A stretch of DNA of 55,449 nt, from the IMG/VR virus record IMGVR_UViG_3300028417_000005, positions 1-55,449 of that record; one strand, given 5' to 3'. Positions 7,146 through 55,449 of the stretch are shown in pieces. The notes under the pieces are model-generated. The model was not told the origin of the DNA, ran no database searches, and saw only the letters and a program-made list of their open reading frames with translations. This stretch comes from a virus. Lineage: Duplodnaviria; Caudoviricetes. A program made the translations under genes and the position numbers. Positions within the stretch are counted from its first letter, which is position 1. Each line of letters starts with the position of its first letter.

Positions 7146-7195
7146 TCTTATTAAGTTTGTTTATGCTAAACTAATATATATCAAAAGGAGATATA

Positions 7196-33800: not shown

Positions 33801-36800
33801 CATTGTCATCACTAAAAGGTCAATATGATAGTAAAGATAAAGATGGTTTTGTATTCTTAGAAGCTATAGCTAATGAGCTAGATGCTCTATTTGGCAAAGG
33901 CAAGATAAAGATAAACATAGGTAGAGATACTAGAGACTCAGATAATACATTTAATGAAAAAAATCTAACTATAAACTTATCTGGTAAAGATAACTCTTAC
34001 ATATCCGATAGTAAAAATAAGAATGCAATACACGAGATATTGCACGCTATGACATCTCTTGGTTTAAACACAGAGAGAGAAGCACTTACTAAGTACACTA
34101 ATCTACTTAGGAGAATACATAAGAAAGAGTTTTCATCTATATCCTTTGAAGATGCTATTGGCAACAACTCATTATCTAAACAAGATCTAGCATTAATATA
34201 CATAGCAACTAGAAAGAACAATATAATCGCACAAAAAGAGCTTGTTGCAATCTTTGGTTCTGATTCTGACTTTAGATCATACTTAAGCAAAGCGGTTGAT
34301 TCATCTGTTGAAATGAATATAGCATTAAAAGCATTCAAAGCTATTATATCTATAATAAATCAAACTATAGATAAACTGATTAAGAAATCAGAATACTTCA
34401 GGAGAGTATCTGATAGCGAAGGGTTAACTACTACTGGTAAAAAAGCTAGAAGTGATAAAGCTAAGAAGATGTATAAAGATATTTTCCACGAGATAGATAA
34501 AGCTAAAGATATTAGTAAAGAATATATTGATGCTATGAACACTAAAGATAAGAATGATGAAGATCTTAATAGTCCATCTTATTCGATCAAAGATAGCGAT
34601 ATATACAATAGTTTAACAATACTCAACAAAGGTACAGTAGCTACTGATGCTGTTGCTTCTAAGTACCTTAGAAGGTTATATAACAGCAATCTAACTAAAG
34701 CATCTATAGTAGCCATATCAGATGGATACAAAAAGCTATATGAAGAACACCCAAGTGTTAGGCACATAGCTAAGTTTATGAGAGATAATATCATTGAATC
34801 TGATTTCATAAAGAGAGTATTAGTTGATAATAACTTAGATGGAAGTGTTGATAGAAATACAATAGATAAGTTATTGACTCTTGACCAGAAGAACCAAGAG
34901 AGAGCTAACAACGCATCTAAAGAAGAGCACGATGATACGATGAATACATTTGGAGATCTATCAAAAGAGGATCAACAGCTATTAACTAAATCTTTTTTGT
35001 CTAGTGATATCAAAGTATTGTTTGATGGTTCTGTATTGCAAGATGTTTTTTATGAGTTTATCAATATGGATAAAGATGAACAAGCAGATTACTTAGCTCA
35101 ACGAGTAGCGCACATAAGTAAAACTAGTGGCAAAATAGATAAGAAATTGCTTACTAAGATAATTAAAAACTCTGGTCAATTTGCTATAAACAAAAACGCA
35201 GATGTAAATGGGTATGTCTTCCACAATGCGATATCAATTGGTCGTCAATTTAAAATAGATGATCAAGATGTAGTAAGTGACATAGATATACTAATAAGCC
35301 TATCTGCATTGTACGAGTCTGGTGGTTCTGCTCTTCTTAAAAAGATCGATAAGAAGAAGCTTGAAAAGCTATCAGATAAACATAAAGCAATAGAAGCCTA
35401 TCAGTTTGATTACTTTGGTTCTGATAGATATAAAATTAGAAAAGGGTGGTTCGTAAATAATCATCATAGAAATTACCAAATAATCTTTATGGATAAAAAA
35501 GAGTACAGAAGAACCAAAAAAGATAGTGGATACAAAGTAATTGGGGAGAGAGATGGTCTACTACTTGTTAAAAGAGTTGATTTATCTGGAGCATATGTAT
35601 CAGGTGCATTATCATTAAATAGTGCCACTCCTACTGGATATCAAATACCAAATAGTGATAAGGTCAAGAGTGTTGAGAAGGGCATAAAGATGTTTGGTAA
35701 GAATGCTGTGCCTAGAAGAGGATATGTTGTCAGAGAGAAGGATGGTATGCCTGTAGAGACATATGAAATTACAGGTTGGAACTATGAAGTAAATAATGAA
35801 GATAAGAACCAACACTCTGAAATGGATAACAACATAGTAGATGTGATATCTAAAACATACAACTCTGTTATGGTTAAGTCATCTTCATCAATGTTAAATA
35901 ATGAGATAATGAAAAAATATTCATTGAACTTTATAAGCGATTCACAAATACAAGAGGGTGATGATGTTGAAGTAGAGCAATATACTAAAGAAAGTAAAGA
36001 GCAACTAAAAAAAGAGCTTGATGAAAAGAATCCATTAATATTTACATTAGAGGGGTTTGATGATGACTTCGGAGTTGGTGATAATGTAGAAGGATATGTT
36101 AGAGTTGATCCAAAGGAGTTCTCAATAAGCAAGAACTTATCTTTTGCTGGCATAAATGATACATCTGTTTTATATGTAAAAAAAGGAACCAACGATATCC
36201 TACTAGGGTATAAAGAGAACTTTATATTTGACAATAGAAATGTTAGATATTATGAGACATTATATAAAGGTATAGTATCTCAAATGAAACAAAATGTTAC
36301 AATTAAGAGCCCAGCTGTACAAAAAGTTAATCTTCTTAGTAATATGTTTATACTTAGTGTAATTGGTGTCCCAGTATATGATATTATCAAATACGGAAAA
36401 GAATTTAATGATAATAAAACTAAGTATGATAAACTTAGTATGAAAATAGATTCATTAGAAAGAAGAAATAAAGCAAAGAAAGATAAAAAAGTACAAGATA
36501 GAATAGATAAGCTTAGAATAAAACTAGAAGAGAATCCACTACATAAGACCTCAAATGCAGGCTTATTTCAGACAATAGATAGTCAGTTAAGAAGAGACAA
36601 TATGATATCTAATGATGCCTTTCTATCAGAAGTATCAAATATCGTAGACAAAATGGGTCTTAATAAACATAATGAATATGTTAAGAAAATTAAGAAACCA
36701 TTAGAAGTCCTTAATAAAAAAGTCAAAATAAAAGATAGTGATACTAGTATAAATGACTTGTCTAAGAATCTTATAGAAAACATAGTGTCAATGGACCCAA

Positions 36801-39936: not shown

Positions 39937-40109
39937 TCTTTTACCTCTCTCTCTTCATTTTCAACTTTTATAATTGTATGTATTATAAAAGCTACTATAA
40001 AAACAAAAGCACATATCATCATTGGCACTATTAAATATGACAGAATCATAATAGCTATAGAACCAGCAATTAACAAAGGTATTATTAATATGATCTTTAT
40101 CATATCCAT
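39933..40109 (-). CDS. 58-aa membrane protein
   Basis: Hand translation MDMIKIILIIPLLIAGSIAIMILSYLIVPMMICAFVFIVAFII...; AAGGA RBS; fills the gap between neighbours. Confidence 0.5.
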   Translation of the reverse strand: MDMIKIILIIPLLIAGSIAIMILSYLIVPMMICAFVFIVAFIIHTIIKVENEEREVKD

Positions 40110-40516
40110 TTTAAATCCTTAACAAGTTTTATATTTATCATAGTCTCCACATTATCTGTAGTATGTACTACAGGTGGTTTATATATGAATGTAAGTATAT
40201 CATCATCTTTAATATACTTCTGTATAACTATAAGATCTGCTATCCATTTGCCAATCATAGCACAACTATCAGCATCTATCTTCCTATTGTTATGTCTAAC
40301 TATTTCAAACACAATTGCCACATTGTTGGTTCCTATCTCTTCTTTAGCCAATGGTATTGACCAGCCTAAGAGTTCAGATACTAACTTTGTTTTTATTCTA
40401 GTCTTAGACCATCTATACCAGTATGGCAGGTTGTTAATAGTACACAACCTGTTTTGCTGTTTAGATGTTCCACCTATCTTAGGGTATGGTATTGTAAAGT
40501 CTAAAATAACTTCCAC
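40100..40516 (-). CDS. RusA-like Holliday junction resolvase
   Basis: RKIDADS...K...D......DDD matches the RusA catalytic pattern. Confidence 0.6.
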   Translation of the reverse strand: MEVILDFTIPYPKIGGTSKQQNRLCTINNLPYWYRWSKTRIKTKLVSELLGWSIPLAKEEIGTNNVAIVFEIVRHNNRKIDADSCAMIGKWIADLIVIQKYIKDDDILTFIYKPPVVHTTDNVETMINIKLVKDLKWI

Positions 40517-40522
40517 TACATC

Positions 40523-41065
40523 CTACCAGACATTACTTTCTTTTTTAGTTGCTTTGCTAGTCGCAAGTCTTTTGATGCTTTTTTTTGATAACTTTTCTTT
40601 TGCCTCTTCAACATCTTTATCTGATGCATCAGCTGGAAGAACCAGAATGATATCATTTTTAACTTTAACAGAACCAGAGTAGTCATCTTCAAACTCTGTT
40701 ACACCAACATATACTTCTTTGCCTATCATATTTTCAACCCACATAGCATCTACTGAATCATCAAAGTGTTTAATCTTTTTGATTTCAAACTCTGGTTCTA
40801 TATTTAAAGCTTCTGTAAACATTTTAAGAATACGAACTCCAATAGACGGTGTACCATTCTTCTTGATCATATTTGTCTTAAAAAAGAGATTACCATCTCC
40901 TTCACAATTAATATGAAGGCTCTTTGCTTGTTCATTGCCCTTTAATATAAACAACTCACCAATAGTTAATTTATGTAGACCAGTTACTAGCGCACCTCCA
41001 GTACTCGTTGATGTGTTATCTAGCTCATCTTTTGTAATCCCTAATTCATCCCATACATTTTTCAT
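40523..41065 (-). CDS. Putative ssDNA-binding protein
   Basis: Follows the Sak4-like ATPase; OB-like beta pattern; terminal W. Confidence 0.5.
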   Translation of the reverse strand: MKNVWDELGITKDELDNTSTSTGGALVTGLHKLTIGELFILKGNEQAKSLHINCEGDGNLFFKTNMIKKNGTPSIGVRILKMFTEALNIEPEFEIKKIKHFDDSVDAMWVENMIGKEVYVGVTEFEDDYSGSVKVKNDIILVLPADASDKDVEEAKEKLSKKSIKRLATSKATKKESNVW

Positions 41066-41742
41066 TTATTGCCTTTTATTTTTTCTAATATATCTGAGAT
41101 TCCTACATCTTCAGTATATGGTATTTCTGGTTCTAATGAACCACCTCTGTTTTTAGCTGATATATTTGATGTTGGATCACATCTAAACACTCTGCTTCCA
41201 TCGTCTTTCACCTCTATATTTATAACTGTGTCATAAAAAGAGATGAACCTGTCTTTTGCTTTCTTACCAACTATTAGAGGAGATAGGTACTCAACAACAC
41301 CTTTAGTATCACTACTATCTAATGCTATTATTATTACATTTGTATTGCCTATGTCTCTAAATAGTCTTCCCATTTTGGCAAGTAGCTTACCATAATCAGT
41401 CCAGAACTTACCAGCATTCTTACCTTCATATTCACCACTGCTCTCAAGCTCATCTTGTATCATTGATGATATCTCAGATATACTATCAACAGCTAATGTG
41501 TCATATTTATGTATTATGCTCTTTGCAAGCTCATAGGCTTCTTTGGTTTCTGCTATAGTTGACACTCTTATAGTATCAACATTCTTAACATCATTTAATG
41601 ACATCTCACCTTTTTCAGGTGATATCATTAATACTTTACCAGCAGTTTTGAGTGTAGATGTTTTACCAGAGCCACTAGCTCCGTATATAATAATCTTAGC
41701 TCCACTTTCTTTTGCTAATTTATATGTACTCTGTACTTCCAT
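41062..41742 (-). CDS. AAA_24 / Sak4-like recombination ATPase
   Basis: IYGASGSGKTS, AVDSISE, AKNR. Confidence 0.8.
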   Translation of the reverse strand: MEVQSTYKLAKESGAKIIIYGASGSGKTSTLKTAGKVLMISPEKGEMSLNDVKNVDTIRVSTIAETKEAYELAKSIIHKYDTLAVDSISEISSMIQDELESSGEYEGKNAGKFWTDYGKLLAKMGRLFRDIGNTNVIIIALDSSDTKGVVEYLSPLIVGKKAKDRFISFYDTVINIEVKDDGSRVFRCDPTSNISAKNRGGSLEPEIPYTEDVGISDILEKIKGNK

Positions 41743-41795
41743 TTGGTGTTCCTTTTTGTGTTTATAATCATATAAAGTTTAAATCTATTCTACCA

Positions 41796-43919
41796 TTAAG
41801 CCCTCCTAAGTAATGTATTTATTTCTGTTTCTTCTAATGGTTCACTCAGCATTGAGTTTACATATATTACATTTCTTTCTATATCACTATATTCTACATT
41901 TATATCTTTCATAAACTCAATGAATTTATATATCTCTTGGTTCCTATTGCCAACTGTAACATTTGATATTATATATTTAATGAAGCCATTAACTCGTATA
42001 TCATTTGTTGCTACATTTTCATTATCAACTCTAACGCTTATCTCTTTAATGCTTTTGAATTTCTCATTTTCATTAATGAACATAGTTGCATCAATCATAA
42101 TGCCTTTACGATTAACATATACCTCAGCATCTTTATTTACATACCATATCCTACTAACATTCCTAGTAGCTTTATCATAACAAGATAAGCCTAGAAATGA
42201 TGCTATTTCATCATACATATACTTATGCTCTTCATATGTACAATAAAACATAGTTGATGTAGGCATCACAATTCTATACCTATCGCAGATAGAACCATTC
42301 TTTTCAACCTGATGTGACTTTGTTGTATATATTATATACACATACCCATCTAATAGCTTCTTAGCTATGTTTAAATCTAGACCATCATCAACATCAAACG
42401 CTATGCAGTTTTGACCACTAATAAAGTTATCTTGTCTTCTGTGACCGTTTGGTGCTTGTTTGCTTGGTTCAAAATGAGCCAAACAAAATGAATCTACATT
42501 AGGTGAAACTATTAGATCTTCAATCGTATTGGTTCCATTATCATTCTTAAAAAAAGATACTTCATATGGTGTAAAGTTAATAGCCTTCTCTTTTTTACCA
42601 GTCTCAGATGGAACAGATACCACTATCTTATCTAGCTCATTAGATGATATATCCTCTATTGATAATTTCTGCAAACTACTTCCAGCTATAGTTAATAGTT
42701 TATTGTGTCTAAGGGCATACTCTTTAAGAAGATCTATGTTTTGCTCATAGCTCCTATTGCTAAGGTTAAGCTTCTTCATAATATCAACTTTGTATATTGG
42801 TTCTGGACTATTAAGTAGTAGTTTATATATTAGCTCAAATTCCATTACATTGTTAAATATAGCTTTTACTGTATCCCTAGTCTTATTAAATAGTTCTATA
42901 GCATATTTGGTATGCTCAGCCTCTATCTTGTCTTGTAGGTCAAGTATGGCTATTATACTAGCAATCTTTTTAACCATAACATATGAGTGCTCATCTAAAG
43001 GTATTAGATCATCATATATGTTTTCATTTCTTTTATCTAATAATGAGTCTTCAAACTCAGATAACAACAACAGCGACTTAGATGTAAACTCAATTATATT
43101 GAATGCATTTTTTATACTTAAGTCATCTTTAGATATTAATGATTTACCAATTGGCATAATTGAATATGCTTCTATCAAATCATCAATGTTAATATTTTCA
43201 ACATCTTTTTTATATGACTTAGCTACATCTTCGTGGTATATGATGCTTCGTCTATACATACCAGATTGTATTATGTTTTTAAAGATATCCATTTTATCTT
43301 TAGTATCGTTAATCCCTACACTGGTTCCATACGCTAACATATTTGTTGGTATGCCATATATAGATTTCCTACTTTCTGTACCAGCATCTCCTTGTATCAA
43401 CCGAGCCATAATCTTCCCATCGTATGCTTCTTTTAACATATTCAAAGCATTCTGTTTTCCAATATGATCACCTAGCTCATCTATCTCTATGTTTAATGAA
43501 CCAATCTGTGCTTCACTTATAAACAGAGATGCTATATATATTCCTATGTCAGATGACTGTATACCAACAAAGTAATCCTTTGGTGCTTTCTTTTCATATT
43601 CAACAGGTATATTAAACCCTTCTGTTGATATCTTTTTAATTACATTTGGCATAGATGATATTATTTTGTCAAATGGTTTTTGCATAACATCTCTAACAAA
43701 GTTCTTACCACCAGCTGATGGAATAAGAACCAATGAGTAGAAATTTACATTCTCTAATTCATCTTTATCTATGTTGTATGTTTTATAGTTACAGGCATTT
43801 GCTAGTATCGCACCAAAGTATAGAGCTGTTATTTCAACTCTCTCTCTAGCTATATGCCTATTATGCTTACCAACACCATAGTCTATAAGCTTATTGTAGT
43901 TATCCATTATTGCCATCAA
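41796..43919 (-). CDS. Primase (N-terminal P-loop-like domain, C-terminal AEP-like primase and PriCT-like tail)
   Basis: PSAGGKN, IDELG; AFDVDDG, YTTKSH, RYRIVMP; GNRN...EPL...E. Confidence 0.75.
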   Translation of the reverse strand: MMAIMDNYNKLIDYGVGKHNRHIARERVEITALYFGAILANACNYKTYNIDKDELENVNFYSLVLIPSAGGKNFVRDVMQKPFDKIISSMPNVIKKISTEGFNIPVEYEKKAPKDYFVGIQSSDIGIYIASLFISEAQIGSLNIEIDELGDHIGKQNALNMLKEAYDGKIMARLIQGDAGTESRKSIYGIPTNMLAYGTSVGINDTKDKMDIFKNIIQSGMYRRSIIYHEDVAKSYKKDVENINIDDLIEAYSIMPIGKSLISKDDLSIKNAFNIIEFTSKSLLLLSEFEDSLLDKRNENIYDDLIPLDEHSYVMVKKIASIIAILDLQDKIEAEHTKYAIELFNKTRDTVKAIFNNVMEFELIYKLLLNSPEPIYKVDIMKKLNLSNRSYEQNIDLLKEYALRHNKLLTIAGSSLQKLSIEDISSNELDKIVVSVPSETGKKEKAINFTPYEVSFFKNDNGTNTIEDLIVSPNVDSFCLAHFEPSKQAPNGHRRQDNFISGQNCIAFDVDDGLDLNIAKKLLDGYVYIIYTTKSHQVEKNGSICDRYRIVMPTSTMFYCTYEEHKYMYDEIASFLGLSCYDKATRNVSRIWYVNKDAEVYVNRKGIMIDATMFINENEKFKSIKEISVRVDNENVATNDIRVNGFIKYIISNVTVGNRNQEIYKFIEFMKDINVEYSDIERNVIYVNSMLSEPLEETEINTLLRRA

Positions 43920-44686
43920 AAGTCCTTTATAGATTGGACCATTGATTTCTTATTGTAATATCTACATAAGTAGTTAACGCTACAATATGTTTCACACTTT
44001 GTAGGAACACTTGTTCTATTTATCTTTCTGAACCACTTCTGTTCACATTCTGGTGGTTCCTTATCTTGTTCAAGATATAGATCCAGCAGAGATAACTTAT
44101 CTACAAGCTTGTCATATATAAATTCATTATCTAAAACATCTAGAGCTATTCTCTCTTGTACTGGTTCATCTAGTGCAGAGTTCGCATCTTTATAAAACAT
44201 ATTCAATGCTAAATCAAATGAATAACCTTTATACTCTTCTATATTGGATAAGATAAACTTTTGAACCTGTAGTTGCCAAAAGTAACCACTAGCTTCATAA
44301 TCTTTTTTAACCATAATACCAGAGAATTTTTTAGTTAATTTGTGGTCAGATAAATAGATAATCTTTTTGTCATTATCTATCCCAAAATAATCTATTGTTG
44401 CTGTTACATCCCAGTCGTTATACACATTGATTAATCTTACCTTCTTCTCAACTTCAACATTTTCAATGCCACTAAAGATTACCTCTAATCCTCTATGAAA
44501 GACAGAACCAAGAGTTGACTGATCTGTTTTACTTGATCTATTTGATACAATATCTTTCTTGTGTTTGATAATTAAGAAATTCTGTATATCATCATTACCA
44601 AACATACTAGCTGTGAAGATCTTATCTTTTGTTAGATCATACTTATATAAAGAACTATCTAATATGTGCTCTTCTATATTTATCAT
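43916..44686 (-). CDS. PD-(D/E)XK Cas4-like exonuclease
   Basis: GSVFH...E..ATID..DHK..WQL and a C-terminal Cys cluster. Confidence 0.75.
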   Translation of the reverse strand: MINIEEHILDSSLYKYDLTKDKIFTASMFGNDDIQNFLIIKHKKDIVSNRSSKTDQSTLGSVFHRGLEVIFSGIENVEVEKKVRLINVYNDWDVTATIDYFGIDNDKKIIYLSDHKLTKKFSGIMVKKDYEASGYFWQLQVQKFILSNIEEYKGYSFDLALNMFYKDANSALDEPVQERIALDVLDNEFIYDKLVDKLSLLDLYLEQDKEPPECEQKWFRKINRTSVPTKCETYCSVNYLCRYYNKKSMVQSIKDF

Positions 44687-44701
44687 TCTTATCCTTTTAA
44701 T

Positions 44702-46360
44702 TTAAAATGGTATATCATCATAATCAATATCTATGTCTATCGTCTCTTGTTTATATTCTATCTTATCAGATATTATATAAGGCGACATAGATCTAAGCCA
44801 AGAATCTTCTTGAGCTACATAATACAATGAATATAACTTTTTATTGTTAATAACACACTTCTTGGCAAGTGTCTTAAATGTTTTTATTATCCTACTCTCG
44901 TAGATAGGAAAATCATTTATGAATTCAATCCAAGCATCTACTATTTTAGTAATTTGACTCTTATTATATCTCACTTGGTTCTGTCTTTTGTTTATTTCAA
45001 ATACAACCTCCATAACAATATATAAATCTTTTGATGTTTCAAAATGATACTTCAGATCGTCCACAGATAGCTCTGGTATCATTTTGATGTTCTTCTCAAC
45101 CTCAGCTATTGCCTTAGAGACTTTGTCTCTTGTGATCTCGTGTAGACCACTTTCACTAGTTATCTTCTTAACTATACTAAGAGCTACTCTCTCCTTCTCT
45201 TTGGATAGCTTCTCCTTGTAGTCTTTTGAATATCTCTTAACTGGCATATATGGTTCATTATGATAACCGTGTGTCTCAAGAATCTTTGATACATCTAGTA
45301 CTTCAAAGTACTTTTTGCCTTTATGTGGTCTAGCACCACGACCTATAATCTGCATTATTAAAGACCTTACAGGTGATGGTCTTATTGGAACCACAAGCTC
45401 TATGTCTGACACATCAAAGCCTATTGATAGTTTATTCATACTAACTAAGCAATTACAAGATATTTCATCATCTGACAACAGAGATGTTTTAATACTGCTT
45501 CCATCTTTAAATAGCTTAAGCATCTCTTTACTTTTTTTACTATCTGATTTAGAGTGGTAGCTATATGCTTTATATCCATCCATAACTAATGCCTCAGCCA
45601 TCGCATCGCAATGCTCAATACTACTGCAGAACACAATTGTTTTTTTGCATTTGGCATTTAGTTCATTCATAGATGATATAGTTAGTGATATAATATTGTC
45701 TGTATTATATATTGATGATATGTCAACAGATGAATAGTCATTGTTATTTAATACTTTTAATTGTGTCAAATCTATATCATTAACAAAACTAGGAACATAA
45801 TATCTAGCCTTAACTAAAGCTCCTATCTCTTCTAAATATTTAATCTCTGAAGCTATAATGTAATCATCTACATCTGGGAATAGATATCCTTCTGAATCAT
45901 ATGGCGTAGCTGTAAACCTAATAATTGGCTTAGAACCAACAACACTCATTATAGAAGATATGGTACTGGTGTTGTAAAACTTATGACCTTCATCAATTAT
46001 AATGTAATCAACATCTCTCAATATACCTACAATATCTTTCTTATCTAGTCTTGCAAATATAGTTTGTATCATACCTATGGTGGTTCTTGCATCTATGTTA
46101 AATAGATCATCCATACCAGATTTAACTACAGATACATCAACTCCTAATGATATTGCTCTATCATATAGCTGTTCTATTAGATCAGATATACCAACCATAA
46201 CAATATGCTTTGATGTTTGTAATGTATTAACTAGTTTCATTATCATAAATGATTTACCACTAGATGTTGGTGATGATATCATTATGTTTTTATTGCCACT
46301 ATCTAATGAATAGTCTATTGATGATACTGTTGTATCTTGAAATGAATATATATTATCCAT
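44702..46360 (-). CDS. Superfamily 2 (DExH) helicase
   Basis: SPTSSGKS, IIDEGH, TATP, GFD, QIIGRGAR; C-terminal DDIPF. Likely start at 46360 (MDNIY), overlapping the stop of the last mini-ORF. Confidence 0.88.
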   Translation of the reverse strand: MDNIYSFQDTTVSSIDYSLDSGNKNIMISSPTSSGKSFMIMKLVNTLQTSKHIVMVGISDLIEQLYDRAISLGVDVSVVKSGMDDLFNIDARTTIGMIQTIFARLDKKDIVGILRDVDYIIIDEGHKFYNTSTISSIMSVVGSKPIIRFTATPYDSEGYLFPDVDDYIIASEIKYLEEIGALVKARYYVPSFVNDIDLTQLKVLNNNDYSSVDISSIYNTDNIISLTISSMNELNAKCKKTIVFCSSIEHCDAMAEALVMDGYKAYSYHSKSDSKKSKEMLKLFKDGSSIKTSLLSDDEISCNCLVSMNKLSIGFDVSDIELVVPIRPSPVRSLIMQIIGRGARPHKGKKYFEVLDVSKILETHGYHNEPYMPVKRYSKDYKEKLSKEKERVALSIVKKITSESGLHEITRDKVSKAIAEVEKNIKMIPELSVDDLKYHFETSKDLYIVMEVVFEINKRQNQVRYNKSQITKIVDAWIEFINDFPIYESRIIKTFKTLAKKCVINNKKLYSLYYVAQEDSWLRSMSPYIISDKIEYKQETIDIDIDYDDIPF

Positions 46361-49338
46361 TATTTTTTCCCCAAAAAGATTTTTCTGATAAGCCTTCAAG
46401 CATTGCAAATACAGTACTAGTAGTTGATTTGTGCTCATATATATGATTTATAAATACATCTTGCGAGCTAACAAGACAAATCTTACCTACATATTTAAAC
46501 ATCATATTCCTTCCAATATTTTATTTTATATAGATTACCACCAACAAGAGATAATCTAGATATACTGCCTAGCATAAAATAATCATATGATAATTTATTA
46601 GCAAATAAATGTTTTAATTCTTTTCTTTTATCAGGTATAAATTTTTCAATACTTTTAAACATTATATTGGTTCCAAAAAGTTTTTTTTGATAAACACCCA
46701 TTTACTGGGCTAGTGTAAATAAATAGCTTGTAATCATATATATGATCTATTAGTGTACTATGCTTCCTAGAAACACAAATATAACTTACCATTTTAAACA
46801 TTATATTTGCTCCAAAAAGTTCTTAATGATAAGCCTTCAGTCATTATGAATCTAGCATTAACAGTTTGTTGATGATCATATATATGATTGATTAGTCCGC
46901 TATGTTCTCTAAAAATACATATACAACCTAATAGTCTAAACATTATATTTGTTCCAAAAAGATTTTAATGACGAGTTTCCACTTATTGTAAATCTAATAT
47001 TATTATGGAATACATGACTATACATATGATTTATAAATGTACTTCGTGTTTCAAGAAGATAAAGATTACCCATATATTTTAGCATTATATTCTCCCCAAA
47101 AAGTTTTTTCATATAAGTTATCATCAAGAATAATTATTCTAGATATAGTATGTAACTTAGAATATTTATGTGATAAATTATTATTAAATAAATGTTTTAA
47201 TTCTTTTCTTTTATCAGGTATAAGTTTTTCAATATTTTTAAGCATTATCTTGACTCCAGAAAATTTTTTCATATAAATTACTATCTATTAAACCTAATCT
47301 ACTAATTGATGTATTGTATTTTGATCGAGTAGGAAGATAAGACATATAGTTATGTCGTATTAGATTATTTCTAGGTGAATATGTTTCTATTTCTTTAATC
47401 ATAATATTAACTTTAAAAAGGATTTTCTGTATATGTAAACCCATCACTAAACCATTGGTTCCAAAATGTCTTTACATTTGTATTATTTAAAATCGTCAAC
47501 TTGTCAGTAGAGAAGATCTTAGGCATATTATTTTCAATTGCATATTTATGTGGTATCATAGATAAATTTTTATCTGAATTATATTTAGATACATTAAACA
47601 TATCTCTTCCAAAAAGATTGATATAATAAATATTCATTCAAATTTAATCTTCCAGTTGATTTATCATTATTTGTCATAGTACCAAGACCCAACATATAAA
47701 TATGTTGGGTTAAGCCGTCATTATCTGTCCTCCAAAAATATGTTTTTATATATTTAATCATAACATCTCCAAAAAATTTTTCTATATAATATATTATATC
47801 TAGAGTCATATTTATTGATACTTTTCATTTGATTTGAATTAACTTTTTTAAACATTATATTTATTCCATTTATCCATGCTTTGTTGTATTGATTTGCTAT
47901 TGCTCCAAAAACTATAATATGATAATTTATTTAACATATTAAATCTAAATACAACATAGCCATCAGAATTAAATCCTTTATATTTATGCTTTATAAACAA
48001 AGTAGAACCATTATGTGATATCTTATCTATATTTTTAATCATTACATTTACCTCATATATTGGTTCCAGAAAGCTTTTTTATTTGTATCATTTATAATTG
48101 TTAGTTTATTACCACTATGTTTATGAGATATCATATAAAAGCTTGTTGCTGCCGTATATTTAAATACATTAAACATATTCATTCCAAAACATTGCTCTAT
48201 AAAAATTGTCTTCAACATTAATTTTAAGATTTATAGAAACATATTCCCTAGATGCTTTAAATATACTTTTAAACATTATATTTATTCCTATATATTTTAG
48301 CATTATCTGCCCCAGAAAGTTTTTATATATGAACATTTATTCGATAAGGCTAACCTATTATATGATTTATCACAATTTATAATAGTTGTATAAATCATAT
48401 AAGTATGTTGTATTAAATTACTATTTCTTGTATCTTGAATTGAGTATCTATTTATATTTTTAATCATATTCACTCCAAAAAGATCTTTTATGTAATTTAT
48501 TATACATATATTCACATCTGTAAAAAACTAAAAAAATATTTTCTCCATAAATAGTTTTCATTCGATATCGAAAAGTATCTGAGCTAACTTTTTTAAACAT
48601 CTCTATTCCAAAAAATTTTTCTGTGTAGTATATGTAATGATCTATCTTTAATATTACACTTCATTTTCTTTAATGATTTTTTATATCTATAATAAGAGAA
48701 CCCAACTCGCTTCTTAATCGCTTTATGCATAACTCCTCCAATATATTTTTAAATATATCTATATTGGTTCCAAAATAATTTTTTAGGTCCATAGGCATTA
48801 AAAAACCTATAGTCATATGTTACATTTGCATATTTAAATCCATTATTATAATAATCATACAACTTGTTATAACCTTTATAAACGATAAACATATTTATTC
48901 CAATATAATTTATCTATTAAAATAATCCTATTAAAGTTATTTGTAAAATCCAATCTAGAGCCATTATAGGTATATGAATATTTAAATGTTAATTTATTAG
49001 ATATTTTATTATTAATAAGTCTTTTATACATAACTATTCCAGCGATTCCAACTAAGATGATATCTATTAGATAAATAATATGAAATATTTAATCTACTAT
49101 CATTATAAGTATATGAATATTTAAATGTTAATTTATTAGATATTTTATTATTAATAAGTCTTTTGAACATATTTACTCCAACGATCCCAACGAAGATGAC
49201 CTCTATTGAATAAATGATATGAAATATTTAATCTATAAACACCATATTTATAATTATTAATTTTTTTATACATATCTATCCAAATCTATTATTTCTACGA
49301 TAAAGGCTAGAAGAGTATAATTTTATATTTTTAAGCAT
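46353..49338 (-). repeat. Array 1: about 21 tandem paralogous mini-ORFs (20-64 aa)
   Basis: Hand-translated units (start-end on -): 49338-49276, 49273-49151, 49170-49024, 49031-48876, 48892-48749, 48730-48593, 48600-48460, 48467-48303, 48303-48169, 48176-48048, 48042-47848, 47855-47754, 47761-47594, 47601-47413, 47402-47238, 47245-47066, 47085-46936, 46943-46794, 46801-46655, 46662-46495, 46502-46353. Example: MFRLLGCICIFREHSGLINHIYDHQQTVNARFIMTEGLSLRTFWSKYNV*. Confidence 0.85.
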
Positions 49339-49343
49339 AGCAT

Positions 49344-50291
49344 TTATTTAATGCTAGCTAATAATAATTTATGATATATGTTAACATACCCTCTAGCTAT
49401 CGATAGAGACATTTTACTATCCCAGATAGTAGAGTTCATAGGACTATTTAAATTGCCGTATGATAGCTCTGAGATACCTATAATAGAGTTTTTAATATGA
49501 GAACCAGTACAAACACTACTTCCACTACTAGATACATTTGGATGCATTACATTTGATAGCAACGGCAACACATTGCCATCTTTTTTTGAGAACCACCCGT
49601 ATGTAGGTATGATTATACTACTATCTATCATACTTAGTTCAATTGACCAATTGTTTATTGTAGTTAGGCTACTACCATCTTGCATCTTGCAATTAAACAA
49701 CATCTCTTCAGCAATAGTAATTAGTTTGACATTATCGTCAACTTTGATATGGTATTCATCAATGTGATCTACAATTTCTCTCATCTCTTCTGGAGCCATT
49801 AGATACAACTCTGGGTCCTTGCTTTCATCAACTGATAATGATATATTTTTGACTTCCAAGGTCATAATAGCTTCTTCAGCTGTCTTTGTATGTTTCTTTA
49901 TTGGCTTAGTTGTGCTCAGATAAACAGCAACCTTTATGTTTGTTAGAGTTTTGAATTTGTTCAGTTTAGAAATGACATCATAAGATAATAAATTGTGAGG
50001 CTTATTATCATTGTCTATGAATATTAATCCATAGAATAGATCATTTTCCATACTTAATCTTAGTAGCTCTATCATACCATCGAAGTTTTTAGCCTTAAAC
50101 ATAGATATGTTAAAGTTAGGCATTTCACCTTTTGCATTTAATGACATATCTTTATTATCTATTGTTGTTTCATATATTCCGTAATCATACGAAATATTAT
50201 TTGACTTCACTATACCCTTGTTTTCAACGACATAGTTTTTAAATTCAGATATTTCGTCTGACAACATTTTATTTAACACTAGACTCATCAT
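49344..50291 (-). CDS. Prokaryotic E2 (UBC-like) protein
   Basis: MHPNVSSSGSSVCTG followed by LSYGNLNSP matches the E2 HPN...C active-site pattern; AAAGGAG RBS. Confidence 0.65.
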   Translation of the reverse strand: MMSLVLNKMLSDEISEFKNYVVENKGIVKSNNISYDYGIYETTIDNKDMSLNAKGEMPNFNISMFKAKNFDGMIELLRLSMENDLFYGLIFIDNDNKPHNLLSYDVISKLNKFKTLTNIKVAVYLSTTKPIKKHTKTAEEAIMTLEVKNISLSVDESKDPELYLMAPEEMREIVDHIDEYHIKVDDNVKLITIAEEMLFNCKMQDGSSLTTINNWSIELSMIDSSIIIPTYGWFSKKDGNVLPLLSNVMHPNVSSSGSSVCTGSHIKNSIIGISELSYGNLNSPMNSTIWDSKMSLSIARGYVNIYHKLLLASIK

Positions 50292-50328
50292 GTCTCCTTT
50301 TAATTTTGGTCTAGCATAGGGACGAACC

Positions 50329-50880
50329 CTATACTAGCTTTTCTTTGTTGGCATAAGCAACACTTAGTAGCTTGTAGTCTGTAGCTACAAGTTTAACCTT
50401 CTCTATCTCTAGATTAAAGATGTCATTCCCTACATTTATGTCTTTTAAAGCGTGTAGTTTCTTGCTGATAGCTTTTACACTATTGCTTACAATCTCTAAC
50501 TTATCTTCTACAGTTAGGAAGTCTGTATCAACTGTTGTATCCATTTCTGGTTCTATAGTTGAATACATCTCTCTGATGCTTCTAATAGCATCTACTGCCT
50601 CTTGTAGCTTGTCTCCATCAGATACTGTTTGATCTGTTAAAATCTCAGTTAAACTTCTGTTAGAAGCTTTTTCTTGATCTTCTGCTCCAGAACCGCCACC
50701 TGATGATTTAATCTCTTCTTTACTTGAGATCACTACATTCACAGTTTGTGTGAATAAGTCGTTTGTTGATTTTACTTCAACACCGTTCTTAGTAGGCGTA
50801 ACCTCAACCTCTGGTATAATACTATCTAATGTAGCATTGTCGATTCTGTTCTGAGCCTCAATGGCTTGTGCAATGTTCAT
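50329..50880 (-). CDS. Putative ubiquitin-like precursor (N-terminal Ubl-like region ending in Gly-Gly, plus helical C-terminal domain)
   Basis: ...KNGVEV...VNVVISS...KSSGGGSG resembles the ThiS/MoaD C-terminal half; lies between E1 and E2. Confidence 0.45.
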   Translation of the reverse strand: MNIAQAIEAQNRIDNATLDSIIPEVEVTPTKNGVEVKSTNDLFTQTVNVVISSKEEIKSSGGGSGAEDQEKASNRSLTEILTDQTVSDGDKLQEAVDAIRSIREMYSTIEPEMDTTVDTDFLTVEDKLEIVSNSVKAISKKLHALKDINVGNDIFNLEIEKVKLVATDYKLLSVAYANKEKLV

Positions 50881-50981
50881 ACTATCCCTTTTAAAAAAAA
50901 TGTAAGCACTATGGCTTCATAAATAAAACTATTAAAGTTCTCTTTATGAAAGCATAGTGCAATTGAAATACTAGGAAAGAC

Positions 50982-52073
50982 CTAATATTTCTTTAGCCAC
51001 TTGGCGACATCTGCCTTTTTGATCTTAAGAAGTTCTCTATTTTGCATTCTCTCGAATCCAATTATTGGATCTTCAATCCCCTCTATATTTACCTCTCCTT
51101 CATACTTTACTATATCAGCTACCTTTCGTCTGCCATCCTCAGATAGCAATGTTCTATATAGATTGCAGTATGTAAATATCCTTATCTCATCATAATCTGA
51201 TGATCTCATACTAGAACCCTTGCGTTCTTCCCAATGCTCCCATTCGGTCTTTAGCTTGTACATAGCATCAGAATAAGCACTATCTGTGCTGTCTAGCACT
51301 AAGTTAAACACTTTATGGAAGTCTCTTTTCCATTTATCTATCTCATTATACACTTTCCTAGCTTCGCTTTCACTATTAGGATCTAGGAAATCCATTAGCC
51401 ATTGACTAGCCATATGCGTAGCTGGAAGCATAAAGTTTAGATCTATCTTGCCATATGATTCATTGACTATTGATGTTTCTGCGACAGGTTTCTCACATAG
51501 CTTAATGATGAGCTCATCATCTTTGTGAGTTATCGTTATAAAAGGTATTGCACCACTATGCAAAACCTTTCTTGTTCTTATATCCATAGCTCCTATTGGC
51601 AGAGCCATAGTCTGCTTGTTGTGACATCCTTCTAAGAACAATGGTTCAATAAAGTCTGTTTCTAGCTTATGGTTGGTTCCCCATTGTCTAAGGGAATCTT
51701 GCTTTAGTGTTGATTTGAGATCACCAACCGATATTGGAATTCTTGGCATATTGCTAAGCTCCCACTTATCGTGTTCGAAGAAGTTGATATTATCTTTATC
51801 TTCTCCAAATGTATAATTTCTTAACATATAGAGCAAATTAGAACCAACACCACCAACACCAACTATCTCTGGAATTGTTGATGTATCTCCATTTTCTGTT
51901 TTATTGCTAATATGCAATTGTTTCATTTTTGGCTCTAAGAACTTAGCATATTTTTTATTGTATGCTGGATTTAAAATAGTATCAGAAGATCTATTTATAA
52001 CCATATCTAAACATTCGTTCGGATTTGTATATTTTTCTTCTAGCTTTATTTTTAGAAAATCTTTTATATCCAT
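50982..52073 (-). CDS. ThiF/MoeB/E1-like adenylating enzyme
   Basis: IVGVGGVGSNL, FEHDKWELSNMPR, LKQD and MDIRTRK match the E1 nucleotide-binding motifs. Confidence 0.75.
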   Translation of the reverse strand: MDIKDFLKIKLEEKYTNPNECLDMVINRSSDTILNPAYNKKYAKFLEPKMKQLHISNKTENGDTSTIPEIVGVGGVGSNLLYMLRNYTFGEDKDNINFFEHDKWELSNMPRIPISVGDLKSTLKQDSLRQWGTNHKLETDFIEPLFLEGCHNKQTMALPIGAMDIRTRKVLHSGAIPFITITHKDDELIIKLCEKPVAETSIVNESYGKIDLNFMLPATHMASQWLMDFLDPNSESEARKVYNEIDKWKRDFHKVFNLVLDSTDSAYSDAMYKLKTEWEHWEERKGSSMRSSDYDEIRIFTYCNLYRTLLSEDGRRKVADIVKYEGEVNIEGIEDPIIGFERMQNRELLKIKKADVAKWLKKY

Positions 52074-52602
52074 AGTGTGTTTCCTTGTTTTTTGTTTTTA
52101 TGTCATCTTGTGTGACATTTATGATTGGCTTAAATGCACTTAGCTTAACAGGGGTAGCTATATCATATGTATACTTACCAGATACAACCTTTCTCCTTTT
52201 CGCATTATAGAATTCTCCATTGAACCCAAATAACATATTCGAACCAATGCCATCTCCATAATCTGGTTTCAGCAATCCATCTTCATCTGTATGTGAGAAC
52301 CCCATAACACCAATTGGATGTGTATGAAGATTATCACATAAACTCATAGATAAAACATTAAAGCCCATAGACTTTAGTTCATCTATCTTTTGTGATATAA
52401 GATTTCTATCAAGACCTTCTATCACAGACTTGACCATAGTAGTCATTACAGAACCAGATGCAGACTTCTGATTGTGCATATAATACAATATAGGTATTAT
52501 ATGCTTGCATTCTGTTTCAACTGAAACATACTCAATTCTAAGCTCACGATCTTGTATGAAAAGATCTATTATATCTTTTGGCGGTATCACTATTTTATAC
52601 AC
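51991..52602 (-). CDS. JAB/MPN+ metallopeptidase (deubiquitinase-like)
   Basis: N-terminal Glu candidates and LHTHPIGVMGFSHTD, the HxH-x7-S-x2-D JAMM motif. Confidence 0.75.
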   Translation of the reverse strand: MYKIVIPPKDIIDLFIQDRELRIEYVSVETECKHIIPILYYMHNQKSASGSVMTTMVKSVIEGLDRNLISQKIDELKSMGFNVLSMSLCDNLHTHPIGVMGFSHTDEDGLLKPDYGDGIGSNMLFGFNGEFYNAKRRKVVSGKYTYDIATPVKLSAFKPIINVTQDDIKTKNKETHYGYKRFSKNKARRKIYKSERMFRYGYK

Positions 52603-53903
52603 ATTCGTATCCTTTTTTTTAGTTTAATATATTTGTCTTTTTGCACCTCAGTATATTTACTCCAGAACAATATATCATTAAGATTATTATCAATACTTAA
52701 TCTAATATCATCATTTGAATCATAATAAATATGAAATATATATAAACCACCACTATAATCATATTTAGAGTCATGTGTTTCTAAGTCATATCTAAACATA
52801 TTCTCTCCAAAATTGTATATTAGTAATACGCCAGCTCATTGCTAACCTATAGCAAATAAATTTATCACAATAAATATGATTTAAACAATTATAATCATAT
52901 TTATATCCATGTGTTTCTAATTCATAATTAAACATATTCATTCCAGAACCATATTTTATCGAGTGGATTTTTTATATTAAGTATATATTCAGTAGATGAA
53001 GTATTATATATATGACATAAATAGTGACACAAGTTAGTGCTGTTGGATCTCTGTCCATGTAAGTCATATCTAAACATATCTACTCCAAAACAATAGATCA
53101 TCAAGGTCATTATCTATGCTTAACCTAATGTCATTAATTGGATTAAAATAAATATGAGATACATAAAGACTTACAAACGAAAAGATATCCATTTTAAACA
53201 TATGCACTCCAGAAATTTTCAAAGCATAAAAAATTTAAACGCTCATTACATTTGAAATTATATTTATAATAAAGTTCATTACTTCTAGCTAAATATATAT
53301 ATGATTTAAACATATTCGTTCCAAAAATCAAATTTATCTAAATATTTGCTAAGAGTAAATCTATTTTTTCTTGGGAAAAAAATAGTATGTTTATGTTTAA
53401 TGTTAGTGATACTGTCCAACCTACCATATATACTAATTTTAAACATATGTCCTCCAAAATAATACCTTATCTAGCTTTCTGCCCATATTAAATTTAGATT
53501 CAATATCTAAACTACAATAAATATGATTTATGTAACCAGATTCTCTAATATTATTATATTTTTGTGCATATACATCATTTTTAAACATATTTATTCCAGA
53601 ATTGTATATTATCAAGTAAATTACTTATCCCAAATCTATATTCAGAAGTTGAAATATAATAAATATGATGTATAGAATTATTATTGGATTCATGTTTATT
53701 TAAACTATTTTTAAACATATTCACTCCAAAATATACAAGAATCTATTCCTGTTGTACTTATATTATTAAAATTTACACGCAATTTTCTGTCAATATTTAT
53801 ATTTAAATAAATATGATCTACCAAGTCATCAATATGAATTGATGTATATGAATTTAAATATTTTTTAAACATATTTACTCCAGAATAATATGTTATCAAA
53901 TAA
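52590..53903 (-). repeat. Array 2: nine tandem paralogous mini-ORFs (39-69 aa) plus a 5' remnant
   Basis: Units: 53872-53711, 53718-53581, 53588-53439, 53446-53306, 53313-53194, 53201-53070, 53077-52928, 52935-52792, 52799-52590. Junction consensus TTYTGGARnRnATATGTTTAR. Example: MFKNSLNKHESNNNSIHHIYYISTSEYRFGISNLLDNIQFWNKYV*. Confidence 0.9.
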
Positions 53904-55449
53904 TTAGTTCACCATATGTAATGATTTTCTAATCTCTTCATTTCTTAATGTATTTTCTTTTAATACATCAATTCTTTTACCTGATATCATAGATAAAACA
54001 TCTGATAGTAAATTGCTATCATTTATTTTACAAGCTACATCTTTTACATTAGATATTAACTTGTCACAATTATTTGGATGAACTCCATAATCATCGTGAT
54101 TTGTTGATAAATCAAACTGACTCATCATACAGACCTCTGAGAGCCAATAAGCCTCTACTGAGTGTATTACGCTTGATGCTAGTCCAGTTGATCGTCTAGT
54201 GGCTCCTACGACCTCTCTATAGTGCGTTAGGGAACCAAACGCTTCTGTGTCTATAGTAACTTCTTCTGTTATCTTACTTGGTCTTATACACTTCACTCCG
54301 TTCGGCAGCGCCCAAGTGTGATATCTCTTTTTGTCAGAGTATAATGATCTTATATCATTCATACCCTCTCCTACAGATTTGGATAAGTTCAGTACTGTAT
54401 CAAATGCGTATTCAGCTATCTCATCTGAATAGTCATTTTTTAATTCATCCATTAATATATTTTGTATTAGCTTAATGCCAGCACAATATGATATTGGTGA
54501 GAAGATAGATTTAACTACATCTCTTGTGAATGTATCAATATTAAACTTACTATTGATATTGTCACTAATAATCTGTTGTATATTTTCTATCTTATTCCCA
54601 CTAGCTAAATTAACTAGTTTTGCTGTTTCTTTACAACTATATAGTAGTGCATATATTTGAAATGCACTAGCACTATGATCTAAGTGCATAATCACACCTG
54701 TAGGCTTACCATCCATATGATCTCTTAGAGCCAATAGATAGTACTCCATAAATAATGGATCCTTAGCTTTGGATATCCATCTCTTGTGGTTCTTAATCAA
54801 CGAATGTTTGTTTCTTGAGAACCACATTGATCTCTGTTGGAAGGTCTTCTTATCTAAGCCATATACTCCAGCTATAGCTACTCCTAGCCAATGTAGTCCT
54901 CTCTCTGTTAACATCTGCTCATTAGCAAACTTGATTAGGACTTTATCTGATGTTGAACCTTGTGGGTTTAATTGGTATGCTGTTCTATACATCCTACCAT
55001 TTCTATCCCTCTTAATTTGAAAGTAAAACTTGTTTCCTTGTTTTAGCATTTCATCTGCACATCTCAATGTGCTCTTTAGCTTACAGTACCCAGTTGATTT
55101 ATCTGTTGGATATGATACTTTATCTAGCATCCTATCCTCTAGCTGATAAGCTACCTTCTGCAACTTATTTACAGATGCATAGTATTCAAGATCTATGCCT
55201 TCATTTAGTCTTTGGTTCCCACTTATGTGAGATTGGTTCATATAAGATTTGAACCCACCAAAGTTAGTGTGTTTCCATTCAGTAGCTTCTACAGCTTCTG
55301 GATATGGATGCTCTATACCTTCTATAGATAATATAGCATCTTCATCTAATTGCTTAGATAGGCTATTGTATATCATAAAGTACTGTTTCGTGTTGTTCTT
55401 TGGTACTAAAATATTAGTTTTAAGTACATCATTACCAGCCATATAGTCA
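53904..55449 (-). CDS. T7/N4-RNAPII-type single-subunit RNA polymerase, C-terminal part
   Basis: DRNGRMY, LNPQG, motif A LDHSASAFQ, motif B RDVVK.......Y, IHSVEA, motif C NHDDY. Confidence 0.88.
   Translation of the reverse strand, partial: DYMAGNDVLKTNILVPKNNTKQYFMIYNSLSKQLDEDAILSIEGIEHPYPEAVEATEWKHTNFGGFKSYMNQSHISGNQRLNEGIDLEYYASVNKLQKVAYQLEDRMLDKVSYPTDKSTGYCKLKSTLRCADEMLKQGNKFYFQIKRDRNGRMYRTAYQLNPQGSTSDKVLIKFANEQMLTERGLHWLGVAIAGVYGLDKKTFQQRSMWFSRNKHSLIKNHKRWISKAKDPLFMEYYLLALRDHMDGKPTGVIMHLDHSASAFQIYALLYSCKETAKLVNLASGNKIENIQQIISDNINSKFNIDTFTRDVVKSIFSPISYCAGIKLIQNILMDELKNDYSDEIAEYAFDTVLNLSKSVGEGMNDIRSLYSDKKRYHTWALPNGVKCIRPSKITEEVTIDTEAFGSLTHYREVVGATRRSTGLASSVIHSVEAYWLSEVCMMSQFDLSTNHDDYGVHPNNCDKLISNVKDVACKINDSNLLSDVLSMISGKRIDVLKENTLRNEEIRKSLHMVN

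Follow-up and report, generated by a model that had tools for sequence, protein, structure and literature searches.

Does a bacteriophage encode ubiquitin-like conjugation chemistry of its own, and do the many small proteins encoded around the enzymes take part in it? These questions are raised by IMG/VR record IMGVR_UViG_3300028417_000005, a linear viral sequence of 55,449 bp (completeness estimate 67%, CheckV), which was analyzed over its full length and is called the window in the following. It carries a cassette of four genes, encoding candidate JAB, E1 and E2 proteins and an acidic partner protein of 183 aa (X183), with arrays of very small genes on both sides; we refer to these as mini-genes and to their products as minis. 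We estimate a probability of roughly 50% that cassette and minis are functionally linked as one accessory module, belonging to a rare and small clade of such modules in phages. The run is encoded entirely on the minus strand and reads, from 55442 to 44702, RNA polymerase, nine mini-genes, JAB, E1, X183, E2, 20 mini-genes and helicase. A first-pass annotation of the same DNA had proposed this co-directional layout from RNA polymerase to helicase, which is indeed present; its count of about 30 mini-genes (9 plus about 21) was borne out for the nine, but the second array contains 20, giving 29 in total plus one doubtful open reading frame (ORF). Cassette and arrays sit between the small RNA polymerase gene and the replication genes, a stretch where N4-like phages carry accessory genes of small size.

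The mini-genes are real coding genes. Their starts were set at the ATG behind a GGA or GGAG, which defined nine units in array A (52590..53872, minus strand, GC content 22.8%) and 20 in array B (46353..49273, minus strand, 22.7%), with products of 33–69 aa (median 49). Not one stop is found in the 1425 codons of these frames, as against a stop density of 5.4–20.6% when this DNA (22.7% GC) is read in its five remaining frames, and the mini-genes cover 1283/1283 nt of array A and 2862/2921 nt of array B. The junction sequence TTYTGGARNRAATATGTTTAAA (≤2 mismatches) occurs 13 times, with 0.00 occurrences expected from 100 shuffles. A GGA or GGAG lies 5–8 nt ahead of 28/29 mini starts and resembles the AAGGA-type ribosome sites of the phage itself, which its larger genes carry at the same distance from the start. 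Furthermore, a profile built from the minis of the window recovered 29/29 array units in the 55-kb record (E ≤ 1.1e-3; next best E = 0.29). With the stop-free frames, the junction counts and the profile matches, the gene run is far beyond chance. We also considered the arrays as non-coding repeats or as promoter units; this is ruled out by the frame statistics and by the minis of related loci, which have no conserved upstream sequence beyond the ribosome site.

Consecutive mini-genes share a recurrent junction: an identical 8-nt overlap is present at 19 of the 28 consecutive junctions, including 8/8 in array A. Here, the upstream frame reads F-W-x-x-Y-V-stop and, one base on, M-F-K. The Trp codon TGG together with the next A or G forms a GGAG or GGAA 5–8 nt before the ATG of the following mini-gene, and ..TATGTTTAA contains the start codon of the next mini-gene plus the stop of the upstream gene. 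The arrangement is one of translational coupling, and the C-terminal FWxxYV of the minis in the window consists for the most part of signals of the following gene, namely its ribosome site and start, plus the stop. The same residues had initially been described as a constant C-terminal docking motif. The exact FWxxYV is found in 10/29 minis, FW in 25/29 and [FYR]W in 29/29; most of the motif is forced by the gene overlap, and what stands of the earlier claim is Phe-Trp alone, which is kept in relatives. Minis of L003, L004 and L005, three related loci, retain Phe-Trp near the C-terminus without a start codon at ribosome-site distance; here it is conserved at the protein level, independent of a role in the ribosome site. 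In addition, the minis of the window share H-x-[YH] about 20 residues in (19/29), an M[FILYH][KRN] start (28/29) and the stretches Rxx(I/L) and (L/I)D....FW; the C-terminal residue is Val in 17/29 and Gly in 2/29.

Does the cassette travel with the minis? Among 5.8 billion proteins, four relatives of E1, two of E2 and nine of JAB were found, and relatives of the cassette occur only in a handful of metagenome contigs. The related loci are L002 (the same as L006 and L012), L003, L004, L005, L007 and L008. The order JAB, E1, X183, E2 is shared by the window and L004, and L005, a fragment of 2.8 kb, has JAB followed by E1; in L002 and L003, E1 precedes JAB, followed in L002 by X183 and E2. Minis are located beside or between the cassette genes at 7/7 loci with flanking sequence (L002–L005, L007, L008 and the window). 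Those of the relatives comprise 40–85 aa and start with M-(I/F/L/V)-(K/N/Q). In L004, they are found before JAB, between JAB and E1, E1 and X183, and X183 and E2, and again after E2; in L003, they lie between E1 and JAB, and in L007 and L008 four units are positioned directly before E1. L002 is part of G001, a sequence of 104 kb (95% complete) in which 15/15 minis are located at 54.1–66.3 kb, with the cassette at 59.96–63.55 kb. These 15 minis served to build the L002-type profile, so that the informative part is the absence of minis in the other ~90 kb. No match to the RNA polymerase of the window was found in G001, an empty answer that shows nothing alone; the module may sit in a different phage backbone there.

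Away from a cassette, no member of the mini family was found in the record, among representative proteins or in 2.9 million viral contigs. Searched with a 40-mini profile, 1.84 billion representative proteins gave 16 matches, all of them from this window. Four single matches to the junction pattern in the 2.9 million viral contigs were rejected as chance, with no mini-profile match below E = 0.038 and no cassette. The first-pass annotation had raised the possibility that arrays and cassette occur independently of each other; with 7/7 loci carrying both and no mini found without a cassette, the outcome is in favor of linkage.

The phage GenBank collection contained no match at the DNA level and none to the E1 protein, and its RNA polymerases reached at most 26.5% identity. 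Single-protein scans of viral contigs with E1, RNA polymerase and helicase returned no relatives, and no E1 relative was found in the genome collection, which therefore gave no clue to a host or prophage. In the plasmid collection, the E1 search yielded matches with E ≥ 0.1 only. A single one of these falls on an annotated ThiF-family gene, which is followed by a major facilitator superfamily (MFS) transporter gene (5611–7882 of Macrococcus plasmid NZ_CP128469.1, L013; E = 0.1, not significant); we take this pair to be reminiscent of microcin-C-type clusters.

The arrays and the cassette differ in how they change. Variation was assessed using assembled contigs, not reads, of a sequencing run (X2) from a study other than that of the probable source run (X1); X2 contains 63% of the words sampled from the region; contigs were compared over 40000–55449, and stretches without X2 cover were not taken as absence. 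Whereas the arrays turn over units, hardly any change is seen in the cassette (~99% identical; 23 differences in 2867 nt, 2 in 461 nt). Core genes differ at 13 positions in 3299 nt and 4 in 707 nt, and the RNA polymerase gene at 28 in 1740 nt. In array B, where 21 differences fall within 901 nt, substitutions are denser and differences at the scale of units occur. A contig of 7313 nt joins 53304 to 53710, skipping 405 nt (shorter side 169 nt, 13 nt shared). These 405 nt correspond to exactly three array A units (2–4; 130 + 142 + 133 nt). Both breaks fall within GAATATGTTTAAA, which the two sides share, and a complete mini remains after the loss. At a second anchored joint, 48771 to 48882 (side 118), 110 nt are replaced by 10 other letters. 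Joints with a side below 30 were left out (41914 to 48276, 43775 to 47098, 44677 to 53577, 47354 to 48445, 47651 to 47766), as were 52695 to 52890 (side 21), 46455 to 46621 (side 30) and two go-back joints (sides 76 and 61). Altogether, these comparisons show that the arrays change by gain and loss of whole units via recombination in the 13–22-nt junction repeat, plus fast sequence change.

From start to end, the units of array A span 53872–53711, 53718–53581, 53588–53439, 53446–53306, 53313–53194, 53201–53070, 53077–52928, 52935–52792 and 52799–52590. Between the stop of the RNA polymerase gene and the first mini start, a mini-gene relic (53873..53903, minus strand) consists of a C-terminus plus junction and reads ..LFDNILFWSK; TTCTGGAGTAAAT lies upstream of the first mini ATG, as at the internal junctions. 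Units 1–10 of array B span 49273–49151, 49170–49024, 49031–48876, 48892–48749, 48730–48593, 48600–48460, 48467–48303, 48276–48169, 48176–48048 and 48042–47848, and units 11–20 span 47855–47754, 47761–47594, 47601–47413, 47402–47238, 47245–47066, 47085–46936, 46943–46794, 46801–46655, 46662–46495 and 46502–46353, all on the minus strand. The doubtful ORF of array B (48670–48816, minus strand, MPMDLKNYFGTNIDIFKN..., 42–48 aa) overlaps two minis in another frame. Read as 48798–48670, it has none of the family motifs; probably, it arose by decay of a unit or is an ORF by chance.

Which activities would the cassette provide? In the JAB-like protein (203 aa, GTG start; 51991..52602, minus strand), NLHTHPxGxxx[FW]SxxD is invariant in 10/10 family members. 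Residues H93, H95, S103 and D106 are present in 10/10 and E20 in 9/10, the tenth sequence being N-terminally truncated, and we take the resulting E...HTHPx6SxxD to be the full JAMM signature (E...HxHx7SxxD). Motif and context make a JAMM/JAB metalloprotease the probable identity of this protein. An Atlas search gave no usable JAB match, and all Atlas structure rows had template modelling (TM) scores < 0.5.

The E1-like protein (363 aa; 50982..52073, minus strand) contains GVGGVGS and F(E/D)xDxWExSNxPRIP (both invariant or nearly so in five sequences) as well as GAMDIxTRK, which are the nucleotide-binding and arginine-finger motifs of ThiF/MoeB/E1 enzymes; the combination of a Rossmann GxGxxG loop with D-x-D...SN-x-x-R is found in this protein. 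Weak matches were obtained to Pfam ThiF (E = 1.3e-3; 18.4 bits, under the cut-off of 28.1; E = 0.11 for the L004 homologue), NCBIfam ThiF (E = 0.025) and the PADLOC 'E1-E2' model (E = 1.4e-3). Among PDB structures, a five-row E1 profile matched UBA5 (E = 8.4e-3), with the nucleotide-binding stretch aligned to UBA5 residues 29–81. The Pfam ThiF, PADLOC and UBA5 matches fall on the same ~50 residues. The protein is probably an E1/ThiF-type adenylyltransferase. At 51991–52073, the Lys-rich tail of JAB and the start of E1 share 83 nt in different frames; this overlap seems real because relatives show conservation of E1 from its very first residue.

The E2-like protein (315 aa; 49344..50291, minus strand) consists of an N-terminal part of ~185 aa without assignment and a C-terminal part of ~130 aa with HPN(V/I)SxxGSxxC. 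H250, P251, N252 and C261 as well as SELSYGNL are invariant in 3/3 homologues. HPN followed by a Cys about 8–11 residues on is what we take to be the E2 active site, here with one extra residue as compared to the classical spacing, and on motif and context the protein is probably an E2. Behind E2, a helical-looking ORF of about 81 aa (M.TT.YLY...) lies 3' of the gene in L002 (13562–13807) and L004 (6331–6579), with no counterpart at this position of the window. All three enzyme assignments had been made in the first-pass annotation, and all are plausible at the motif level. The E1 call comes with weak ThiF, Cap2 'E1-E2' and UBA5 matches; for JAB, the full motif in the family stands without confirmation by a family model or fold, and for E2 the same applies to the HPN...C, invariant in three sequences, as no family model or fold confirms a ubiquitin-conjugating (UBC) domain.

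The fourth protein of the cassette, X183 (50329..50880, minus strand), has homologues at the same cassette position in L004 and L002. It is composed of an N-terminal segment, which is 18 residues shorter in L002, an S[ST]KEE[IV]KxSxxG segment, a variable linker and a conserved C-terminal half (..LVATD....), which is probably helical; weak coiled-coil-type Pfam matches were obtained for the L002 homologue only. Its early description as a Gly-Gly protein serving as ubiquitin-like modifier is not supported: The GGG is internal (residues 61–63), only S60 and G63 are invariant in three sequences, the protein ends ..KEKLV without a C-terminal Gly, and evidence for a beta-grasp fold was not obtained. 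The combination of a beta-grasp and a C-terminal Gly was not found among the minis either, of which 2/29 end in Gly. By analogy with Bub systems, X183 could conceivably be processed at its invariant Gly to release a tag other than ubiquitin.

A number of results weigh against a linked conjugation module, both on the side of the enzymes and on the side of the minis. All E1 matches remain below curated cut-offs and cover the nucleotide-binding loop only, there is no invariant Cys among the five aligned E1 sequences, and one family member lacks the Asp of GAMD. For the JAB-like protein, no match at E ≤ 1 was found in Pfam, PHROG, NCBIfam or PADLOC; JAB profiles of 4 and 10 sequences gave 0 matches at E ≤ 10 in the PDB, and Prok-JAB (PF14464) 0 matches in the record at E ≤ 10. 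The E2-like protein had no Pfam match at E ≤ 1 (three homologues) and none in PADLOC, Prok-E2 (PF14460) had 0 matches in the record at E ≤ 10, and the E2 profile matched no E2 structure in the PDB. Its AlphaFold2 model (three-row alignment) is unusably uncertain, with a predicted local distance difference test score (pLDDT) of 40; the C-terminal part of this low-confidence model shows a helix, three strands, a loop and a helix, and a Foldseek search against the PDB gave 0 matches at E ≤ 0.001, with unrelated top rows. An Atlas language-model search with residues 185–315 placed three mostly viral Prok-E2_D clusters nearest, with scores of 0.80–0.82, which is a lead only, this range being reached by shuffled proteins a third of the time. 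Finally, no ubiquitin-like modifier was identified in X183 or the minis.

As to the minis, dN/dS (the ratio of nonsynonymous to synonymous substitution rates) of the closest paralogue pairs is 0.36–1.2, indicating relaxed constraint outside the anchor motifs and not clear positive selection. Two mini alignments (A5 and A6) contained no stretch with sufficient conservation for locus scans. The AlphaFold2 model of one mini (40-row alignment) shows no confident fold, with a pLDDT of 61, one helix of five residues and no beta structure. A profile of the window minis alone matched none of the relatives' minis, and a wider profile (A5) matched no minis in G001. Using hhalign, the window minis aligned end to end with those of L003, L004 and L005 (E = 1.4e-3, probability 17%; reversed control E = 0.8), and showed no homology to those of L002, L007 and L008 (E = 0.49). 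Cross-lineage homology of the minis is consequently weak for the former and unsupported for the latter loci, which, the enzymes being ~40% identical, comes as no surprise. The shared M-I/F-K/N/Q start may only mirror A/T-rich codons after the ATG in AT-rich genomes, and the adjacency of cassette and minis could be a property of the N4-like accessory region.

These findings bear on the possibility, serious though in our view rather unlikely, that cassette and minis are functionally independent. The minis would then be fast-evolving proteins for host takeover in the early or middle phase, as is typical of hyperplastic accessory regions, E1, E2 and JAB would work alone, with X183 or with host proteins, and the adjacency would reflect that accessory genes pile up. 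Weak or absent mini homology across lineages fits such independence, as does the overlap of ribosome site, start and stop, which accounts for most of the C-terminal motif in the window. Moreover, no terminator or promoter enrichment separates the arrays: the promoter and terminator scan found no terminator-like site on the coding strand of the run and 88 promoter-like sites versus 87.8 expected. The region from RNA polymerase to replication genes is also generally rich in small ORFs in N4-like phages. However, independence does not readily account for the adjacency at 7/7 loci with minis between every pair of cassette genes in L004, for the restriction of the G001 minis to within 6 kb of the cassette, or for the lack of any family member found without a cassette.

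If cassette and minis do form one linked module, how would it work? The whole run would be transcribed from the RNA polymerase gene to the helicase gene in the middle phase of infection. E1 would adenylate a protein C-terminus, and E2 would carry the activated C-terminus on Cys261. JAB might create this C-terminus by cleavage, possibly in X183 at the invariant Ser-x-x-Gly, or might remove conjugates. The minis would act as variable partners of the enzymes, with their conserved ends (M-F/I-K..., ...L/ID....FW) holding the enzyme and the variable core holding the target, and as specificity factors they would aim the reaction at host proteins. In its full form, a conjugation machine run by the phage, with ~30 minis as diversifying adaptors or conjugatable tags and without a ubiquitin-fold modifier, is a tentative proposal that we consider unlikely. 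It is likewise doubtful that each such adaptor aims E2 at a different host (defence) protein, the library being reshuffled at the junction repeat. The module might serve host takeover, counter-defence or exclusion of other phages.

A role of the minis as specificity factors is favored over one as substrates, because nothing but short motifs at the ends is common to them, with free variation elsewhere. As substrates, the minis would be a library of ribosomal peptides adenylated at their C-terminus by the ThiF-like enzyme, as in MccB/PaaA-type systems, or an activated 'modifier' as with type II CBASS (cyclic oligonucleotide-based antiphage signaling systems), where a JAB trims, and the E1-E2 enzyme activates, a non-ubiquitin protein at its C-terminus, and JAB would remove the variable tail after Phe-Trp. 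The MccB/PaaA-type systems likewise have a ThiF-like enzyme beside small-peptide genes, and the E1 described here has no conserved Cys, as expected of an enzyme that only adenylates. A substrate role would also fit with the lack of an encoded ubiquitin-like protein, with the precursor-like minis of relatives, in which a short Lys/Glu-rich tail of variable sequence comes after the invariant FW, and with the MFS transporter gene that adjoins, in a microcin-C-like manner, the only annotated ThiF gene hit by E1 among plasmids (E = 0.1 only). Nevertheless, we regard such a role as improbable. MccB/PaaA-type systems have one short precursor and neither E2 nor JAB, whereas 29 genes of 33–69 aa and an E2 with an invariant Cys are present here, and such an E2 is to our knowledge not part of peptide-modifying ThiF systems. 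Furthermore, the overlap determines the C-terminal residues of the window minis (Val 17/29, Gly 2/29), C-terminal conservation is missing from L002-type minis, and we know of no precedent for a bulky Trp as the activated residue.

Comparison with other known systems places the module near several of them. The E1/E2/JAB set of type II CBASS works without a ubiquitin-fold modifier. This would be shared by the cassette of the window, whose E1 weakly matches the Rossmann motif of the PADLOC 'E1-E2' model; however, Cap2 is a fused E2-E1 protein acting with Cap3, while E2 and E1 are separate ORFs here and E1 lacks an invariant Cys. The CD-NTase family SMODS (PF18144) had 0 matches at E ≤ 1 in the 67%-complete record. 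Likewise, NCBIfam PRTRC models gave no match at E ≤ 1 with the four cassette proteins; a ParB-related gene was not specifically searched. The arrays are reminiscent of hyperplastic regions of T4-type phages, in which tandem small genes are reshuffled at short conserved junctions (here a 13-nt identity), and of adaptor families of large eukaryotic viruses, in which variable adaptors feed one conjugation machine. In contrast to both, the repeat is the translational junction itself here, the units are paralogues from a single protein family, and it is the virus and not the host that supplies the conjugation enzymes.

The Bil system uses a dedicated two-domain ubiquitin-like protein ending in an invariant Gly (10.1101/2023.09.04.556158). 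With Bil (BilA–D: ubiquitin-like protein, E2, JAB and E1), the cassette shares separate co-directional genes for E1, E2 and JAB and the HPN...Cys signature in the E2-like protein. No counterpart of the Gly-ended protein was found here, and no similarity to sequence models was found in PADLOC; in addition, Bil is a host defence, whereas here a phage cassette comes with mini arrays. Bub has an E1 without catalytic Cys and a modifier cut from a larger precursor, and combines oxyester chemistry with a serine protease in bacterial operons (PMC11601596). Likeness lies in the diverged E1 and E2, the E1 family without invariant Cys and the S-x-x-G of X183 as a presumed cleavage site; on the other hand, the E2 described here keeps an invariant Cys, the protease candidate is of the JAMM type, and the cassette is located in a phage. 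Clusters of E2, E1 and JAB genes were described by Iyer, Burroughs and Aravind in 2006 from integrative and conjugative elements, plasmids and chromosomes, often with fused E2-E1 or poly-ubiquitin-like proteins, and the available text gives as the only phage case the lambda/T1 tail-assembly pair, with TAPI as Ub-like protein and JAB in TAPK, which is structural (PMC1779556). The same predicted triad of activities on mobile elements is what the window shares with these clusters. In its presumed working, the module resembles bacterial E1/E2/JAB systems, yet it falls outside each of them at the sequence level.

The kinship with antiviral systems also raises the possibility that the cassette is a weapon of conflict and not a tool of host takeover, i.e., a Bil/Bub-type system carried by the phage against competing phages or, as a variant, a set in which JAB strips the conjugates of a host Bil or type II CBASS, with the minis being optional. 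The characterized bacterial E1/E2/JAB sets act in antiphage immunity, as far as the accessible parts of two studies show (PMC11601596; 10.1101/2023.09.04.556158), and such clusters are highly mobile, with oppositely directed activities proposed by Iyer et al. 2006 (PMC1779556). A patchy distribution together with fast turnover would fit conflict genes. Still, we consider this role quite unlikely: judged by sequence, the cassette does not belong to the Bil, CBASS, Bub or PRTRC families, JAB alone would suffice for a pure counter-measure, and the cassette is located within the run of replication genes in an N4-like phage of the lytic type.

Searches of the open-access literature turned up no phage E1/E2/JAB cassette accompanied by arrays of mini-genes. 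Prokaryotic E1/E2/JAB sets have so far been characterized as bacterial antiviral systems (Bil, type II CBASS and Bub). A lytic-type phage with its own, very diverged set would move conjugation chemistry to the virus side of the conflict, and for the association with a module-specific, fast-turnover family of ~50-aa proteins no counterpart was found in the open-access literature. If the minis are partners of the enzymes, they would represent a natural library of small specificity elements and allow a tractable test of how conjugation proceeds when no ubiquitin fold is involved. Should they not be partners, the arrays still provide a clean example of coupled units recombining at a junction of ribosome site, start and stop.

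The phage itself is, by its gene content, assigned to the N4-like class. It encodes a giant virion RNA polymerase (ORF of 3117 aa, 27890–37243, plus strand; PHROG match of 3.1e-56 over the central ~500 residues), a small RNA polymerase, an N4-type primase (PHROG, 4e-62) and a portal protein (PHROG, 8.3e-143). No DNA polymerase was recognized among the scanned ORFs of the 67%-complete record, no Rfam family reached the gathering score, and no tRNAs were found. The run starts with the small single-subunit RNA polymerase (512 aa; 53904..55442, minus strand; Pfam RNA_pol 1.5e-18, PHROG RNA polymerase 8.5e-43, N4-like RNA polymerase 4.8e-26), with the end of the record 7 nt upstream of its start. 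Last in the run is a superfamily 2 (SF2) DNA helicase (44702..46360, minus strand; Pfam ResIII 1.1e-16, Helicase_C 4.4e-11, PHROG DNA helicase 2.5e-51). The ORF as listed starts at 46438, and its first 26 codons are the last mini junction in another frame (..KNLFGEKIM); most likely, the start is the ATG at 46360 (MDNIYSF...), directly behind the last junction, because the ribosome site of this junction (FW/GGGGA of the last mini) precedes that ATG.

Most of the helicase gene and a nuclease-like gene of 256 aa lie at 44120–46180, where the X2 contigs have a depth of 1.0–1.6 in three of four bins versus ~14 elsewhere. Cover was measured at a likeness of at least 80%, and the flanks on both sides are 98–99.6% identical; this may reflect an allele that has diverged or been replaced, or else a gap in the assembly.

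At the other end of the record (5000–6140), the GC content jumps to 44% at 5001–6000, with a strongly positive AT skew. The jump is located at the switch from minus-strand to plus-strand genes, and a 25-nt tandem repeat (2.6 copies, 6058–6122) as well as a 13-nt repeat (6111–6135) lie beside it. No Rfam family was found in this region, and the ORFs that overlap it (5617–6066 and 4651–5061) have no Pfam match. Close by, a protein of 709 aa (2402–4531, minus strand) matches the MYG1 exonuclease family (UPF0160) in its N-terminal part (1.2e-25). By eye, an ORF of 306 aa in the cassette-bearing locus L003 (3914–4834) has an HNGxFHxDE-type start like that of the 709-aa protein.

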